In this document: positions 12,237-22,203 of the stretch, in pieces
Position numbering within the stretch: the first letter of the stretch is position 1
Layout: every line of letters begins with the position of its first letter
Sequence record: DRR378314_1063
DNA length: 41,093 nt
Strand: one strand, 5' to 3'
Notes under the pieces: generated by a model
Told to the model about the DNA's origin: nothing
Databases searched by the model: none
The model's input: the letters and a program-made list of their open reading frames with translations, nothing else
Made by a program: the position numbers and the translations under genes

Positions 12237-13190
<954 letters not shown>

Positions 13191-13231: not shown

Positions 13232-14545
13232 TCAAAATACGGTTTCAAGACCGAGCATGACTTCCCGGCGACTGTAGTCATAGCGCTCGATGGTGCTGTG
13301 GTTGTCCAACATGCTCCATTCCGCCAGCATCATCCATTCGCCGGCCAAGCGGTATTCCGCCAGCAGGGAACCGCGCAAGCGGTTATCCCGACGCCGTTCT
13401 GACACCAGCGTCCCGTTCGAGACAAACCTGTGATCATCCTTGTAGCGGGAGTAGCGAACATCGGCCTTGCCGCCCAGCGAAAATCGCCCGGACACGTAAT
13501 GACGAACTTCAGCCGATAAAAGATTGCGCACAGGGGACACACTGTAAAACTCCTGCTGGGTCGACAGGTCTCTACGATAGTTGTCCTCCAACTGATAGTG
13601 GCCGCTAAGAACCCAGCTTCCCAACGCTTTGTCAGCGCTGGCATTGAATCGCAGCATCTCACCATCGTAAGCACGGTAACCGCGGCCACCCTCAATGGTC
13701 GAAACCGATCCGCTGACACTGCATTCAACGCCGGGTACGACAGGGCCCAACACACACTGATCGGGACGATAAAGCATCTCGACTCGAGCCTCGCGTTCAA
13801 GGGTGTCACCTCCGAACCAGGAGGTGGACAGGTCCAGTGTCGACGTTAGCTCACCGTCTTCCAACTGATTCAGCCACGACGCACCCGCGCTGAGATAACT
13901 GTTGTCAAAGGCGGCGTTACCGGGGTATTGGCGGGTATAGGCGACCCCGTGCACACTGACATCCGTTTCACCAAGCTGGACATTCCCCACTGTCAGCACA
14001 TCGGCAAAGCCGCCTTCCCTGTCGCTGGACGCAGCGTCCGGGGTTCCAGCAATGTTGTCGTCGTAACCTCCCGCGAGTGCGAGATAGCCGGTACCGAGGG
14101 TGGGTTCAATTGGGGATGGTGCGGCCCTATCCGTCAGCTGTCGACGAGCCAGGGCCTGGACTTCTTCAGGCGAATCCGGGCTGGCAGCGCGTTGGAACCA
14201 TTGACGGGCATCGTCAGCGTTCCCCATTCCTTGCTTTACCAGGCCAAGATTGTAATAAGCCAGCGGCGCATGAGGCGTTTCCAACAACTTCAGGAACACC
14301 GTTTCGGCTGACTCCAGCTGGCCAAGGCGGAAGTAGACAACACCAAGATTGTAAAGCAGGGATGGCGAGTGTGTACCATTTGCCTTTGCTCGCTCGAAAT
14401 AGATCCGAGCCTCGACCAGGTTTCCTTGCCGAAAGGCTTTTACACCGGCATCAAAGTCCGGCGCGCCGGAAACCTCCGTCGCCATCGCCATGGGAACAGA
14501 GGCCATCAGGCCAATAAACAGAATGGCTAATCGTGGGAACCCCAA
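13232..14545 (-). CDS. TPR-containing outer membrane beta-barrel protein (Slam/DUF560-like architecture)
   Basis: Signal peptide, TPR motifs (YNLGVVYFRLG, YYNLGLVKQGMG), then GYDDN and amphipathic beta strands ending in a C-terminal Phe. TTG start with GGAG SD. Confidence 0.75.
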   Translation of the reverse strand: MGFPRLAILFIGLMASVPMAMATEVSGAPDFDAGVKAFRQGNLVEARIYFERAKANGTHSPSLLYNLGVVYFRLGQLESAETVFLKLLETPHAPLAYYNLGLVKQGMGNADDARQWFQRAASPDSPEEVQALARRQLTDRAAPSPIEPTLGTGYLALAGGYDDNIAGTPDAASSDREGGFADVLTVGNVQLGETDVSVHGVAYTRQYPGNAAFDNSYLSAGASWLNQLEDGELTSTLDLSTSWFGGDTLEREARVEMLYRPDQCVLGPVVPGVECSVSGSVSTIEGGRGYRAYDGEMLRFNASADKALGSWVLSGHYQLEDNYRRDLSTQQEFYSVSPVRNLLSAEVRHYVSGRFSLGGKADVRYSRYKDDHRFVSNGTLVSERRRDNRLRGSLLAEYRLAGEWMMLAEWSMLDNHSTIERYDYSRREVMLGLETVF

Positions 14546-14684
14546 GCCTTACTCCGGAAATACACTGTGGTGGCGCCCCTCGCACCAACCTATTCATGTG
14601 CGAGGGCGACAAAACCGGGAGTATAGCAACTGACGAAGTGCTTCGTCGCAGGAGGAAAATTACGATGCCGTATAGTGAAGGCCA

Positions 14685-15071
14685 CTATGGCTGCTGCGGG
14701 CGATCCGGACGATTGGTCACTTCTGGCCGCCCGGGAGAATCCGGACGCCCCTTGCCCGCATTCTGGTTACGAACTTCCCGCGCCCGCTCCGACGCCGCGT
14801 TGGCGGCTTCCCGCCCTTTCTCACGTGCGCCCTCGGCCTGGCTCTCAGGATTGGCCCGCTCACCGGCGGCGCCATTTTTCGCAGGTCCATCCAGTGACAC
14901 CGGTTCACGCAGGTTTATCTCACGCACAACGGACTCTGTGATGTCATCGTCATCTGTAACCATTCTCATGGTCACATCCAGATCGTCACTCGCAAACGTT
15001 ATTGATGGCGCCGCCAAAAGTACGCTGAGACAGCCGAGAAACACCATCGTCTTCCAGGTTCCCGACATCAT
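14685..15071 (-). CDS. Small secreted/periplasmic hypothetical protein
   Basis: Signal peptide ending TFA, acidic DDLDVTMRMVTDDDD segment, charged low-complexity tail. Start overlaps the anti-sigma stop (ATGA). Confidence 0.75.
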   Translation of the reverse strand: MMSGTWKTMVFLGCLSVLLAAPSITFASDDLDVTMRMVTDDDDITESVVREINLREPVSLDGPAKNGAAGERANPESQAEGAREKGREAANAASERAREVRNQNAGKGRPDSPGRPEVTNRPDRPQQP

Positions 15072-15811
15072 GACGAGGGCTCCGGGCTTCCATTGATGGC
15101 CGGGTCATTGAGACTGGCACGGAATGTCTTGGTTCGTTTGCCATCATCAAGATGGGCAACGAGATCGCCCTCACCAGCAAACAGTATATTTAACGGCAGG
15201 TTTACCACGTTTTCGCCTTTATCCAAGTCTACCCTCCAGCTTAACCGTTGATGCCCGGGATACTCCGAGACCTCAACGTGGGGAGGTAACTCAACGGTCA
15301 AGGTAACACCCTCCAGCGCTTCCTTGGACCGGAACGCAAGTCGGACGTTCCGGGCAACCGGCTCCAGCACAAGACTTTCTTCCGGGCGCTCATCCACCAC
15401 TGCTGCCGGAGACTCACTCGCTGACTCAGTTCCAGAATGCGTCAACTCATTCACTGGCTCCTGGTCTGCACGCCAGCCAAACCCAAGTGCAATCCCTAAC
15501 ACCAGGGCCGCTGCAATGGCGCCCCCTGCCCACGGCGTACTCCAACCATAGGCTGCAAGGCTTTTGCGGGAACGTCCACGTCTTCCGCACGCAACGTCCA
15601 GAGCACGCTTTTCAAAATCCGGTGACGGGGGAGGTATATCCTGGCTTTCTCGCATCGCTGCGAGGACGGCCATTTCATTATGTGCAGCAATAGCACAGTC
15701 CTCGCAGTCAGCAATATGTTGCTCAATGCGGTCAGCCTGAGCAGCCGGCAACTCGCCCTTGGCCCAGGAACACAGACTGTTTTTGCACTCGTTACACACC
15801 ATTGCCATCAC
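15068..15811 (-). CDS. Zinc-binding (ZAS/zf-HC2) transmembrane anti-sigma factor
   Basis: HIADCEDC (HxxxCxxC), one TM helix, beta-rich periplasmic domain. Lies directly after the ECF gene. Confidence 0.88.
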   Translation of the reverse strand: MMAMVCNECKNSLCSWAKGELPAAQADRIEQHIADCEDCAIAAHNEMAVLAAMRESQDIPPPSPDFEKRALDVACGRRGRSRKSLAAYGWSTPWAGGAIAAALVLGIALGFGWRADQEPVNELTHSGTESASESPAAVVDERPEESLVLEPVARNVRLAFRSKEALEGVTLTVELPPHVEVSEYPGHQRLSWRVDLDKGENVVNLPLNILFAGEGDLVAHLDDGKRTKTFRASLNDPAINGSPEPSS

Positions 15812-15812
15812 C

Positions 15813-16400
15813 TCATTCTTTCACACGCTCGGTGTGCGGAAAAAGTTCCGGGCGCCCAAGTAATTTTTTCCTCAGAGCGGCGCGACAACGATGAACCCTG
15901 GATTTCACAGTGCCAACCGGGATCTCCAGCACCTGAGCGATGTCTTCCTGGCTCCAACCATCCACATCATGCAACAGCATCAGTGACCGCTGATCAGGCG
16001 ACAGAGTCTGGATCACTTCATCCATGATGGGCTTTAAACGTTCGGCACTGATCTGCTCACTGACATCGGGTATGTCCGCAGCGTAGGAGTCCAGAAAGGA
16101 GGACTGCTGCTCCAGCTCTACGACATCGCTCACTGGCCTGTCCGCACGACGCCCTTTACGTCGAACCTGATCAATAAAGTGCCGGTACAACACACGGTTC
16201 AGCCACGGCCTTAATTGCTCCACGGACTCCAGTTCCGAAAGGCGCGGGTACAGCTTCAAGACAACGTCCTGAACCAAATCCTCCGCATCCTGCTGCTGCC
16301 CGGACAAACGGTAGGCAAACCGATACATCGCCTCCAAATGCGGCTGCACCAGTTTTTCAAATCGCTTGGCCCGAGAGGGATTAAAGGAAAGTAAAGCCAA
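15813..16400 (-). CDS. ECF RNA polymerase sigma factor
   Basis: Region 2 (DAEDLVQD, PWLNRVLYRHFID) and region 4 (EDIAQVLEIPVGTVKSRVHR). Confidence 0.95.
   Translation of the reverse strand: MALLSFNPSRAKRFEKLVQPHLEAMYRFAYRLSGQQQDAEDLVQDVVLKLYPRLSELESVEQLRPWLNRVLYRHFIDQVRRKGRRADRPVSDVVELEQQSSFLDSYAADIPDVSEQISAERLKPIMDEVIQTLSPDQRSLMLLHDVDGWSQEDIAQVLEIPVGTVKSRVHRCRAALRKKLLGRPELFPHTERVKE
15824..15849 (-). promoter_or_regulatory. Putative ECF-dependent promoter inside the 3' end of the sigma gene
   Basis: Minus strand GGAAC (15849-15845), N17, CGTG (15827-15824), just upstream of the anti-sigma start. Confidence 0.6.
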
Positions 16401-16538
16401 AACCGGTACTCGTCTGATTAGTCGCGCAAAAAAGAGGGGCAGTTTACAACACTATCTGCACTTAAGTATTGGCCTACCACCCAAGCACCTCTCAAATTTG
16501 CATCCGTCTTAACATGAGCAAAGGTTAACAGAACTTAT

Positions 16539-16564
16539 GGAACGGCGAACGACAGTTCAGCGTT
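16539..16564 (+). promoter_or_regulatory. Putative ECF-dependent promoter for the lipoprotein gene
   Basis: GGAAC (16539-16543), N17, CGTT (16561-16564), about 65 nt before the start codon. Same geometry as the site at 15824-15849. Confidence 0.6.
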
Positions 16565-16627
16565 AAGCCCCTGTGGCCATCCAACATTTCTTCAACAGGC
16601 CAGCGTCTTTCCTATAGGAGGTTTGCA

Positions 16628-17530
16628 ATGAATCAGTCTCTCAAATACCTGACAGTAATTGGCTTTACCGGGGCACTGGTTGCCTGTGGCGGCGACAGCG
16701 ACAGCAGCAGTCTCAGCGGAGGAAAAACAGGCAGCGTGAGCGTCGGACTGACAGATGCACCTGTAGACAGCGCCCAGGAAGTAAACATCGAGGTCACCGC
16801 GCTGGTACTGCAACCGTCCAATGGTGATCGACGCAGATTCGAGCTGGAATTCCCCGCGCCGATCAATCTTCTCGATCTGCAGGGTGGTTCATTTGAAAGC
16901 CTCATCACGGATGAGGAAGTTCCGGCTGGCAACTACAACTGGATGCGGATCGAACTCGGCAACGACAACACCGTCGTAAACGACTCGGGCACTCATATGC
17001 TTACCACGCCGTCAGCCAGGGGCGTCCAAACATCTGGCTTCACCGTTCCTGCGGGCGGAGAAGTGAGCTTTACCATCGACTTTGACGTTCGCAAATCCCT
17101 CGTGAACCCCGTCGGGCAAAATGGGTACAAGCTCAAACCCGTTCTCAGGCTGGTCGACAATTCAGAAACCGGCACCATTGAAGGAACCGTGGCGGGCGAG
17201 CTGATTACCCAGGAGTGTGGCGATGCTCTCACCCCGGAGTTTGCCGGCAATGTCTACATTCATGAAGGCGCAGGCGCTCAACCAGACGATATTGGCAGCG
17301 CCAACGAGCCTGTGGTTGCGGTGCCGGTTGAAGAAAATGGAAACTATTCGTACATCGCCGCCTTTATCCCGGCAGGCGACTATACCGTCAGCTATACCTG
17401 CGGTGACGATCTGATCGAGGACGATCAGGGAGACCCGTCAGACGATGACATCACGTTCGTAGGCGCACAAAACGTGACGGTCGTGGCTGAAGAAACCTCA
17501 ACGGCTGACTTCGAGATTCAAGTACCGTAA
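16628..17530 (+). CDS. DUF4382-like acidic lipoprotein
   Basis: Strong AGGAGG SD, lipobox LVAC then a G/S linker, VGLTDAP, INLLDL, TIDFDVRKS and YKLKPVLR motifs. Confidence 0.85.
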   Translation: MNQSLKYLTVIGFTGALVACGGDSDSSSLSGGKTGSVSVGLTDAPVDSAQEVNIEVTALVLQPSNGDRRRFELEFPAPINLLDLQGGSFESLITDEEVPAGNYNWMRIELGNDNTVVNDSGTHMLTTPSARGVQTSGFTVPAGGEVSFTIDFDVRKSLVNPVGQNGYKLKPVLRLVDNSETGTIEGTVAGELITQECGDALTPEFAGNVYIHEGAGAQPDDIGSANEPVVAVPVEENGNYSYIAAFIPAGDYTVSYTCGDDLIEDDQGDPSDDDITFVGAQNVTVVAEETSTADFEIQVP

Positions 17531-20494: not shown

Positions 20495-20625
20495 GGCGGG
20501 ATTATAACGAATCCGGGCATCAGTGAGGCAGATCATCCGTGTGTTATTTCTGTAATCTGCCGGTTATGCTCGTTATGATGGGAACGATAAAAATCAACGA
20601 GTTCAAGGAACCCAAGGAGAGAGCC

Positions 20626-22203
20626 GTGAGCGATACACCTTCTGATAACCTGATTCTGGCATTGCAGGATCCGGCGCAGTATGACCACCCGGTGAAAGAC
20701 TTTCAGGTTATCGAAACTCACATCTCATGGGTCATCCTGACCGGCGATTACGCCTATAAAATCAAGAAGCCGATGGACTTCGGCTTTCTCGACTTCTCGA
20801 CCCTGGAGCGGCGCAAACGGTTCTGCGAAGAAGAACTGCGGCTAAATCGGCGCCTTGCCAGCAATCTATACCTCGACGTGTTGCCGATCACCGGCTCCGC
20901 CGATGCCCCAACACTCGGCGGTGATGGTGAGGCGTTCGAATACGCCATTCGCATGCGCCAGTTCGACCAGAACGACCTGTTCGACGTGCGACAGGAAAAC
21001 AGCAACCTCAGGCCGGAGCTACTTACCAGTCTTGCCCGACAGGCAGCGGAGTTCCACGACAAGCAACCTCCGATTGAAGCCGGCAAGCCGCTGGGAACGC
21101 CGCAAGCGGTCCTCGCTGCGATGCAGGAGAACTTCGATCAGATCCGTCCGATGATTGATGATGACGCCCTACTGCTTCAACTCGACAATCTTGAGCAATG
21201 GACCCGCAGCACGTTCGAGCGCCAATCGGCGCTGATCTCCGAGCGCCACGAGGGCGGCTTTGTGCGGGAGTGCCATGGCGACCTGCACCTGGCAAACATC
21301 ACCGTTCACAACGGCGACGTCACGGTGTTCGATTGCATCGAATTCAGCGAACCCTTCCGCTGGATTGACGTCATTAACGACCTGGCATTCCTGTTGATGG
21401 ACCTGGAGTCACGCCGGGAGCCCGAGCTGGCGAACCTGGTGCTCAATACCTACCTGGAATACCGGGGTGACTTCGAGGCCCTGCCACTGCTGCCGCTCTA
21501 CAAGGCTTACCGGGCCATGGTCCGAGCCAAGATTGCTCTGTTTACCATGGGCAACCCATCGCTGACCGACGCCGAGCGTCAGGGGCTGATGCAACGCTAC
21601 CGCGATTACGCCCAATTGGCGGAAGACTACAGCGCCATACCCAACCCCTACCTACTGGCCACCACTGGGCTCTCCGCCAGCGGGAAATCCTGCGTCAGTG
21701 GCTCCCTGGCGGCGGAGTTGGGGCTAGTCCGGCTGCGTTCGGATGTTGAGCGCAAGCGACTCTTTGGCCTGGGCCCGTTGGACCAGAGTAAGTCTCCGAC
21801 CGGACAAAAACTGTATACCGAAGAGGCCAACCAGCGCACCTATGAGCGCCTGGCCTCTCTGGCCGGCGCGCTACTAACCAGCGGCCTGCCAGTCGTCATA
21901 GACTCTGCGTGCCTGAAACAGTCCGAGCGGGAGATGATGGCGGATGTGGCCGAGAGCCGGGGCATGCCGTTCTCACTGCTACACTGTGAAGCGCCTCTGG
22001 AAAGCCGCAAGGAATGGGTTCGCAACCGCTCAGGCGACGCCTCAGAGGCCACCGAAGACTTCCTGGACGAGCAGCAAGACTGGTTTGAACCCCTGACCAC
22101 CGAGGAAAAAACCCACACCATTCACTTGTATACTGACCAGGAACATGTCGCGGAGGCCGTCGCGGACCGAATACGCCAGCATTTCGGCCTGCCCGGAATG
22201 TAA
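20626..22203 (+). CDS. Bifunctional APH-like phosphotransferase / P-loop kinase of unknown function
   Basis: ETHISW, YKIKKP, ECHGDLHLANI, FDCIEF, then GLSASGKS and RSDVERK. GTG 20626 follows an AAGGAG SD. Confidence 0.88.
   Translation: MSDTPSDNLILALQDPAQYDHPVKDFQVIETHISWVILTGDYAYKIKKPMDFGFLDFSTLERRKRFCEEELRLNRRLASNLYLDVLPITGSADAPTLGGDGEAFEYAIRMRQFDQNDLFDVRQENSNLRPELLTSLARQAAEFHDKQPPIEAGKPLGTPQAVLAAMQENFDQIRPMIDDDALLLQLDNLEQWTRSTFERQSALISERHEGGFVRECHGDLHLANITVHNGDVTVFDCIEFSEPFRWIDVINDLAFLLMDLESRREPELANLVLNTYLEYRGDFEALPLLPLYKAYRAMVRAKIALFTMGNPSLTDAERQGLMQRYRDYAQLAEDYSAIPNPYLLATTGLSASGKSCVSGSLAAELGLVRLRSDVERKRLFGLGPLDQSKSPTGQKLYTEEANQRTYERLASLAGALLTSGLPVVIDSACLKQSEREMMADVAESRGMPFSLLHCEAPLESRKEWVRNRSGDASEATEDFLDEQQDWFEPLTTEEKTHTIHLYTDQEHVAEAVADRIRQHFGLPGM

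Follow-up and report, generated by a model that had tools for sequence, protein, structure and literature searches.

A sigma-controlled Marinobacter locus combining a Slam-like TPR-barrel protein with a divergent lipoprotein: a probable surface-lipoprotein module

The window analyzed here, a 41,093-nucleotide (nt) stretch of DNA from sequence record DRR378314_1063, carries at positions 13232–17530 a five-gene locus that combines transcriptional regulators with an outer-membrane barrel protein and a lipoprotein. Four of the genes lie on the minus strand and code for: (i) a 195-residue extracytoplasmic function (ECF, group IV) sigma factor (15813–16400); (ii) a 247-residue single-pass anti-sigma factor of the zinc-binding anti-sigma (ZAS) type (15068–15811); (iii) a 128-residue small secreted protein (14685–15071); and (iv) a 437-residue outer-membrane protein, in which tetratricopeptide repeats (TPRs) precede a beta-barrel (13232–14545). 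The fifth, on the plus strand (16628–17530), faces away from the sigma gene and codes for an acidic DUF4382 outer-membrane lipoprotein of 300 residues. The sigma and anti-sigma genes are set apart by a single nucleotide, the anti-sigma and small-protein genes overlap at an ATGA, and 139 nt separate the small-protein gene from the barrel gene, an interval in which we found no terminator-like site. The open reading frames (ORFs) bear out the five genes and their coordinates as listed in an original prediction made from the sequence alone, together with its claim that the first three genes abut or overlap.

The regulatory pair is an ECF sigma factor with a ZAS anti-sigma factor, as that prediction took it to be. 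The sigma factor consists of Sigma70_r2 and Sigma70_r4_2 only, with TIGR02937 matching above its cut-off (E 2.8e-31). The anti-sigma factor contains a zf-HC2 domain (E 1.5e-6), matches the anti-sigma model NF052375 below its cut-off (E 2.6e-9), and has an HxxxCxxC motif, whose H32, C36 and C39 do not vary among 33 homologues; its similarity to RseA is marginal (E 0.024, far under the cut-off). Beyond the membrane lies a conserved domain of about 85 residues (approximately 150–235), predicted to be periplasmic. Thus, regions 2 and 4 of the sigma factor, the HxxxCxxC of its partner and the juxtaposition of their genes are all those of an ECF sigma factor with a ZAS anti-sigma factor. No ECF group with a matching gene context was found in the main text and part of the supplement of PMC7826278, the remainder of which may hold one. 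Domains of the FecR or TonB-dependent receptor types had no match in the locus proteins or in 10 other large ORFs of the window, in keeping with the earlier claim that the window has no TonB-dependent receptor.

The four operon genes travel together across genomes, as the original prediction had expected of a functional unit. A scan of species genomes turned up 249 relatives, from which we took the best 80 loci; by their labels, these belong to Marinobacter, Halospina and Oleiphilaceae, except for one metagenome-assembled genome labelled Nocardioides and three labelled only Pseudomonadota. The sigma factor, anti-sigma factor, small protein and barrel were all detected in 76 of these 80 Marinobacter-group loci; two of the remaining four are cut by a contig end and two lack the small protein by tblastn. 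The DUF4382 gene accompanies them in 58 of the 60 loci that, like that of the window, lie at the hemL site and have both flanks. The operon also occurs elsewhere in the genome, in six long loci and a short one, several of which are second copies in addition to one at the hemL site; these off-site loci have the four-gene operon without DUF4382. At a greater distance, a profile of the barrel family (E <= 1e-25) matched in 26 of 300 sampled gammaproteobacterial genomes. Our census of neighbors, with gene models from ORF heuristics, covers 20 of these 26 and finds sigma factor, anti-sigma factor and barrel together in 19 of the 20 distant loci, with barrels only 24–34% identical to that of the window over the best local BLASTP alignments. 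In three distant loci (L114, L118 and L127) a gene for a secreted DUF255/thioredoxin-like protein of 625–666 residues lies downstream of the barrel gene and convergent to it.

The locus contains two conserved matches to the motif GGAAC-N17-CGT; ECF promoters typically carry AAC in their −35 and CGT in their −10 element. The divergent motif (16539–16563, plus strand) faces the lipoprotein gene and ends 64 nt before its ATG. Among the 72 loci with sufficient upstream sequence it faces the divergent gene in 69 and the sigma gene in none, as against a mean of 0.3 per 72, and a maximum of 3, in shuffled sequences. The internal motif (15849–15825, minus strand) lies within the last codons of the sigma gene and ends 14 nt before the start of the anti-sigma gene. 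All 78 Marinobacter-group loci compared have it, always at this distance and with the two boxes exactly 17 nt apart; since the sequence of the spacer between its two boxes varies while motif and distance stay fixed, this argues for a constraint on the DNA and not on the C-terminus of the sigma factor. The distant loci have an internal motif in 16 of 20 cases and a further site upstream of the sigma gene in 10 of 20. Over the whole window the pattern occurs four times against 1.56 expected, a count that is by itself not significant, and the other two matches (2293 and 31330) are both inside long ORFs. We infer that the sigma factor of the locus reads both of its sites, the internal one being a predicted sigma-dependent promoter for the anti-sigma factor, the small protein and the barrel.

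Two further conserved elements lie in the divergent intergenic region: a TGnTATA(G/A)ACT element (~16440–16452), resembling an extended −10 and placed some 60 nt before the start of the sigma gene, and a GTTAACA box (16523–16530, plus strand), which in most loci stands 8–9 nt upstream of the −35 GGAAC. These may be, respectively, a sigma-70 promoter of the sigma gene and a regulator site. One locus (L053) keeps the divergent motif with no ORF of at least 80 residues behind it.

The product of the barrel gene has a signal peptide, Pfam TPR matches at residues 37–126 and a C-terminus ending in GLETVF. Its AlphaFold2 (AF2) model (predicted local distance difference test, pLDDT, 88), built from a 34-sequence alignment, has eight helices (residues 5–139) followed by 14 strands (151–436), the strand count being that of a prediction. 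The DUF560 proteins, which include Slam and the other translocons of type XI secretion systems (T11SS), are described in PMC8406197 as a periplasmic TPR domain of about 140 residues joined to a 14-strand barrel. The modelled helices at ~29–139 agree in extent with the former and the C-terminal strands with the latter; 14 is also the number of strands that the original prediction had expected.

A profile search of 1.84 billion representative sequences returned 894 matches to this barrel family at E <= 1e-30. The best 150 all have E <= 1.7e-89, are nearly all about 400–460 residues long and span almost the whole profile; the homologues that bear a name are almost all from Marinobacter. When 86 members of the family were scanned singly, BBP2_2 (PF10082) was found in 48 (best E 2.5e-9), and SlipAM and TPR_Slam in 15 each (E <= 0.01). 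Two distant members exceed the curated cut-off of SlipAM, and both have sigma and anti-sigma genes alongside. For a comparison of profiles we gathered SlipAM-matching proteins from the 300 sampled gammaproteobacterial genomes, 16 of which had a match. Aligned with hhalign, the profile of the 86 members matches that of 16 such proteins with a probability of 100% (E 4e-40) over 396 columns, from the TPRs to the last strand, and that of seven strong DUF560 proteins (PF04575 E <= 1e-26) with 99.0% (E 2.6e-18) over 343 columns. On structural comparison with Foldseek, the best overall match of the whole protein is BcsC, itself a TPR-plus-barrel protein, and the barrel alone matches the 14-strand monomeric porins OmpG (TM score to target 0.69) and CymA. 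In the PDB, the DUF560 profile retrieved no solved barrel of that family, the full family profile mostly TPR proteins, and the barrel-only query a single spurious match. Taken together, the profile alignments provide strong evidence of remote homology and place the window barrel in the DUF560/SlipAM (Slam, T11SS) superfamily, on a divergent branch that is largely overlooked by the Pfam model. The label "Slam-like" given to it in the original prediction stands on both architecture and profile homology, with the window protein itself below SlipAM.

A separate barrel of Marinobacter algicola DG893 (L081:691–2325), 331 residues long and without TPRs, scores above the SlipAM cut-off (E 3.8e-9); ahead of it lies a secreted Ala/Glu/Arg-rich protein of 198 residues, which resembles the tail of the small protein in composition and has no DVTM motif. 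Between the window barrel and this TPR-less barrel BLASTP found nothing significant, and single-sequence hhalign gave 17%.

The small protein is secreted and acidic, as had been claimed, with a signal peptide and a mature part of pI 4.8; Pfam and NCBIfam scans returned no match and place it in no known family. In the window it begins with an acidic N-terminal motif, SDDLDVTMRMVTDD..ITESVVREINL, followed by a basic, Pro-rich, low-complexity tail. Across the Marinobacter-group loci the motif, directly after the signal peptide, reads DDLDVTMRMVxDDxxLTxSVVREIxL: V33, T34, M35 and L54 are invariant and adjacent residues nearly so, and the tail is variable, charged and Pro-rich. In 12 of the 20 distant loci a small secreted protein encoded upstream of the barrel gene has a related DVTMxV...IELP motif, a thirteenth match being judged spurious. 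One of the distant loci, in a low-GC genome (L130:1945–7347), has the motif-bearing small protein and the barrel beside a response regulator and a histidine kinase, and neither a sigma nor an anti-sigma factor was detected there. This cuts against the small protein being an accessory of the anti-sigma factor: because that locus keeps both without the regulatory pair, the association of the small protein with the barrel is no less constant than that with the anti-sigma factor. In M. salarius R9SW1 (L013:4731–5846) the anti-sigma and small-protein ORFs are read through in one frame of 371 residues; both copies of the barrel gene in that genome seem to be split into two frames, through frameshift errors of the assembly or as pseudogenes.

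We also predicted the complex of the periplasmic domain of the anti-sigma factor (residues 140–240) with the small protein (28–110), a prediction made without alignments of our own. The score was 0.46, against 0.00 for the best of three controls, with a contact agreement of at least 82% between runs and a partner pLDDT of at least 52. Of 78 solved complexes, 51 reach the mark for such scores, as against 2 of 108 mismatched pairs; among scores of 0.60 or less, it is reached by only 5 of the 78 solved complexes and by all four of the mismatches that pass (of 180). The prediction thus lends weak support to binding of the small protein by the anti-sigma factor.

The divergent gene codes for the acidic, DUF4382-like lipoprotein that the original prediction had described: PF14321 matches at residues 34–171 (E 7.6e-32; 110.8 bits against a cut-off of 25), the lipobox is LVAC-GG with Gly at +2, and the mature protein has a pI of 4.05. 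Gly at +2 predicts sorting to the outer membrane and does not indicate the leaflet. The AF2 model (pLDDT 76.7) predicts two all-beta domains, DUF4382 and a second resembling a beta-sandwich, for which Foldseek retrieves Ig-like adhesin and pilin folds at low TM scores. In the literature we found DUF4382 only in archaeal glycoproteomics. In 67 loci the divergent motif is followed by an ORF that has a lipobox by pattern in 63 and, by eye, L(A/V)ACGG in three more, the exception being L051 with none. This ORF is DUF4382 at the hemL site, whereas five off-site copies of the operon have a lipoprotein of 978–1037 residues in its place, and both of the large lipoproteins that were scanned match the VolA/Pla-1 model TIGR03502 (E 2e-48 and 3e-38) below its cut-off of 383.9 bits. 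VolA is an outer surface lipoprotein according to the title of PMC3656444.

The DUF4382 proteins differ to an extent that their neighbors do not: they are only 42–51% identical between loci whose hemL is 98–100%, sigma factor 97–100% and barrel 85–98% identical, and the allele of the window type is 67% identical between lineages whose barrels share 42%. Alleles thus appear to have been swapped between near-identical strains, a pattern that would be expected of an exposed surface protein. Distant loci provide further lipoprotein neighbors: DUF4382 behind the motif in L123 and L129, SBP_bac_5 in L124 and a TTHB210-like protein in L113; in L131 a beta-propeller protein with a doubtful lipobox lies behind the motif. 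In L125 (5862–9033) the gene of an MtrC/MtrF-like multihaem cytochrome lipoprotein starts in the last bases of the barrel gene and is followed by that of a DUF2202 lipoprotein, an arrangement that could possibly represent an export route for surface cytochromes. In the window, the DUF4382 lipoprotein is a predicted target of the sigma factor and a candidate cargo of the barrel. The functional link between the barrel operon and the divergent lipoprotein that the original prediction had proposed holds up in two respects: the conserved ECF-type promoter of the lipoprotein gene, and the pairing of second operon copies with a VolA-type lipoprotein.

These features suggest a regulated surface-display system, previously undescribed. 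We consider it probable that the Marinobacter locus is a self-contained, sigma-controlled surface-lipoprotein module with a Slam/T11SS-like translocon and new classes of cargo, in which the barrel would translocate the divergent lipoprotein, and the small protein may be a periplasmic partner of the barrel, of the anti-sigma factor or of both. Briefly, we advance the following mechanism. The membrane-anchored ZAS anti-sigma factor would hold the ECF sigma factor; once freed, the latter would fire the two GGAAC-N17-CGT promoters. From the internal one would come the anti-sigma factor, the small secreted protein and the TPR-barrel protein, and as this promoter drives both anti-sigma factor and barrel, its firing would bring about negative feedback as well as induction of the translocon. 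From the divergent one would come the outer-membrane lipoprotein, namely the DUF4382 protein in the window or, in second copies of the operon, a VolA-type lipase. The Slam-like barrel would then carry the lipoprotein to the cell surface, with the small protein assisting or gating this step and perhaps reporting to the anti-sigma factor. Of the overall reading in the original prediction, the Slam-like nature of the barrel, its link to the lipoprotein and the lack of a TbpB-like barrel in the cargo are supported; display of the lipoprotein by the barrel, sensing of cargo or assembly state by the anti-sigma factor with the small protein, and the role in cell-surface signalling stay conjectures.

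Several observations weigh against this proposal. On the side of the barrel, the Pfam model SlipAM/DUF560 (PF04575) gives no match to the window protein at E <= 0.1, and, when run over two Marinobacter genomes, misses an 89%-identical orthologue in that of M. salarius even at E <= 10; further, BBP2_2 matches (48/86) outnumber those of SlipAM (15/86) within the family. The profile comparison with DUF560 and BBP2 proposed in the original prediction accordingly gave a split result: the window protein itself has no DUF560 match and a weak one to BBP2_2 (E 0.008; 15.5 bits, under the cut-off of 23.7), and homology to DUF560 is found at the level of the family profile. On the side of the cargo, Pfam, AF2 and Foldseek agree that the DUF4382 lipoprotein does not have the C-terminal eight-strand barrel (TbpBBD/lipoprotein C); its absence had been foreseen in the original prediction, PF14321 being the sole domain match and the model comprising two beta domains. 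Beyond the signal peptide, no targeting domain common to the DUF4382 and VolA-like lipoproteins is detectable. Finally, 14 of the 20 distant loci have no obvious adjacent lipoprotein, and in two loci (L075 and L079) the operon is retained while divergent promoter and lipoprotein are both missing.

The absence of a recognized targeting domain is one of the points that favor a different arrangement, in which the lipoprotein would face the periplasm and be stably bound to the barrel in an outer-membrane complex, of either a plug-and-barrel or a porin-accessory type, and the ECF pair would regulate this complex in the manner of an envelope-stress system. The Gly at +2 fits this as well, being silent on the leaflet, as does the resemblance of the isolated barrel to the monomeric 14-strand porins OmpG (TM 0.69) and CymA. 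Against it, the operon is paired with unrelated lipoproteins (DUF4382 and VolA-like, and at a distance SBP_bac_5, MtrC-like, DUF2202 and TTHB210-like), for which a carrier of diverse clients is a better fit than a fixed structural partner. Further, the VolA family is reported as surface-exposed, to go by the title of PMC3656444, and the deep replacement of DUF4382 alleles between near-identical strains would be more typical of exposed proteins. We therefore regard such a complex as unlikely.

An alternative of similarly low probability turns the roles around, with the barrel and the small protein as the outer-membrane sensor of a TonB-independent signalling chain that leads to the periplasmic domain of the anti-sigma factor, and with the lipoprotein as a mere output. 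The constancy of the barrel and the small protein in the regulatory operon (76/80), as against a lipoprotein partner that varies or is missing, speaks in its favor, along with the weak score of the anti-sigma/small-protein complex (0.46 versus 0.00 for the best control). Set against these are the homology of the barrel to DUF560 translocons over its whole length; the internal promoter, which would make the barrel itself an output of the sigma factor, co-induced with the lipoprotein; the L130 locus, where small protein and barrel adjoin a two-component system and neither a sigma nor an anti-sigma factor is matched; and the absence of FecR and TonB-dependent transducer domains from the scanned proteins.

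Translocation and sensing might also be joined in a single device, a version that we hold to be doubtful. Here, the small protein would bind the periplasmic domain of the anti-sigma factor and would also be a client or plug of the barrel, so that the activity of the sigma factor would depend on whether the translocon is idle, blocked or engaged with a lipoprotein. By analogy, this would amount to an FlgM-like logic at an outer-membrane translocon and to a TonB-independent form of cell-surface signalling that is widespread in Gammaproteobacteria.

Lastly, a barrel of the BBP2/EpsL or BcsC/PgaA-like type that exports a polysaccharide or another non-protein substrate, with only superfamily-level kinship to Slam, has on its side the prevalence of BBP2_2 as the commonest barrel match (48/86, best E 2.5e-9), a weak match to the NCBIfam model EpsL (E 7e-5; 22 bits against a cut-off of 275) and BcsC as the best overall Foldseek match, yet it is highly improbable given that the window barrel stays below the curated cut-offs of BBP2_2 and EpsL, that neither the window locus nor the scanned neighbors include glycosyltransferase or polysaccharide genes, that 14 strands and not 16 are modelled, that the end-to-end profile match is to DUF560, and that the predicted regulon consists of proteins.

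The surroundings of the locus are largely those of a housekeeping region, as the original prediction had it: thiD, thiE and hemL are confirmed on one side, and a TPR lipoprotein and PBP1B (mrcB) on the other. The 191-residue TPR lipoprotein upstream of PBP1B corresponds to the predicted LpoP by architecture only. Left unmentioned there was a gene on the plus strand between hemL and the barrel gene (12270–13190), convergent to the latter, which codes for a secreted alpha/beta-hydrolase lipase of 306 residues (Abhydrolase_1, E 9e-15) and is found in 42 of the 60 hemL-site loci with both flanks. Considered alongside the VolA-type lipase of the second operon copies, it hints at a theme of lipid use. 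Further along, divergent from PBP1B, lies a gene (20539–22203, plus strand) for a 554-residue protein that couples APH-like kinase and AAA_33 domains and has no NCBIfam name.

If the favored reading of the locus as a surface-lipoprotein module is true, it has consequences for our understanding of type XI secretion in terms of: (i) the extension of T11SS to a branch mostly missed by Pfam; (ii) the addition of a conserved small partner and of an ECF sigma/anti-sigma pair as its dedicated regulator; and (iii) new cargo classes, namely DUF4382, VolA-type lipases and possibly MtrC-like cytochromes. VolA-type surface lipases would then have a candidate route of export in the barrel family, and the predicted regulon, with two promoters, is small and belongs to a marine genus that is culturable and non-pathogenic. 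Published accounts have so far followed other lines. According to PMC8406197 and PMC12282271, T11SS proteins fall into ten sequence clusters, and, according to the latter, experiments concern only the animal-associated cluster 1, in which the cargo is recognized via its C-terminal barrel. The word "sigma" is absent from these two papers, no link of T11SS, DUF560 or Slam to ECF or anti-sigma factors was among the literature matches listed, and a search for work joining DUF560 with Marinobacter found none.

Set beside known systems, the locus shares elements with several and coincides with none. With the BBP2_2 (PF10082)/EpsL proteins it shares weak matches of the window barrel (E 0.008 and 7e-5), the BBP2_2 matches of 48 of the 86 family members and a GYDDN-type motif in the first strand; it differs in its scores below the cut-offs, in the absence of a PEP-CTERM or polysaccharide context, and in the TPR domain and DUF560 homology of the barrel. 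The VolA surface lipoprotein lysophospholipase of Vibrio cholerae has its counterpart in the large lipoprotein at the second operon copies, which matches VolA/Pla-1 (TIGR03502), although with scores below 383.9 bits and in a protein that lies outside this window. Like RpoE-RseA-RseB, the locus has a single operon for a sigma factor, a membrane anti-sigma factor and an accessory protein of the periplasm, with an internal promoter for the downstream genes; unlike that system, it has no RseA or RseB homology past the marginal match to RseA (E 0.024), its operon includes a barrel of its own, and its predicted regulon is, as far as the window shows, local, with two motif sites. The resemblance to FecI-FecR-FecA lies in the co-encoding of an ECF sigma factor, a single-pass anti-sigma factor with a periplasmic domain and an outer-membrane barrel, with the targets adjacent. 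Here, however, there is no TonB-dependent transducer, FecR domain or signalling domain; the anti-sigma factor is of the ZAS type, and the barrel, being Slam-type, is itself behind a sigma-type promoter. Slam and the other T11SS translocons (DUF560; Neisseria Slam1/2, Xenorhabdus NilB and HrpB) have in common with the window barrel a TPR domain of about 140 residues, a 14-strand barrel, full-length profile homology and a lipoprotein gene adjoining the barrel gene. In contrast to them, the window barrel does not reach the Pfam threshold, the cargo candidates (DUF4382 and VolA-like) are without the C-terminal eight-strand barrel of known cargo, and the barrel gene is part of an ECF sigma/anti-sigma operon together with a conserved small secreted protein.

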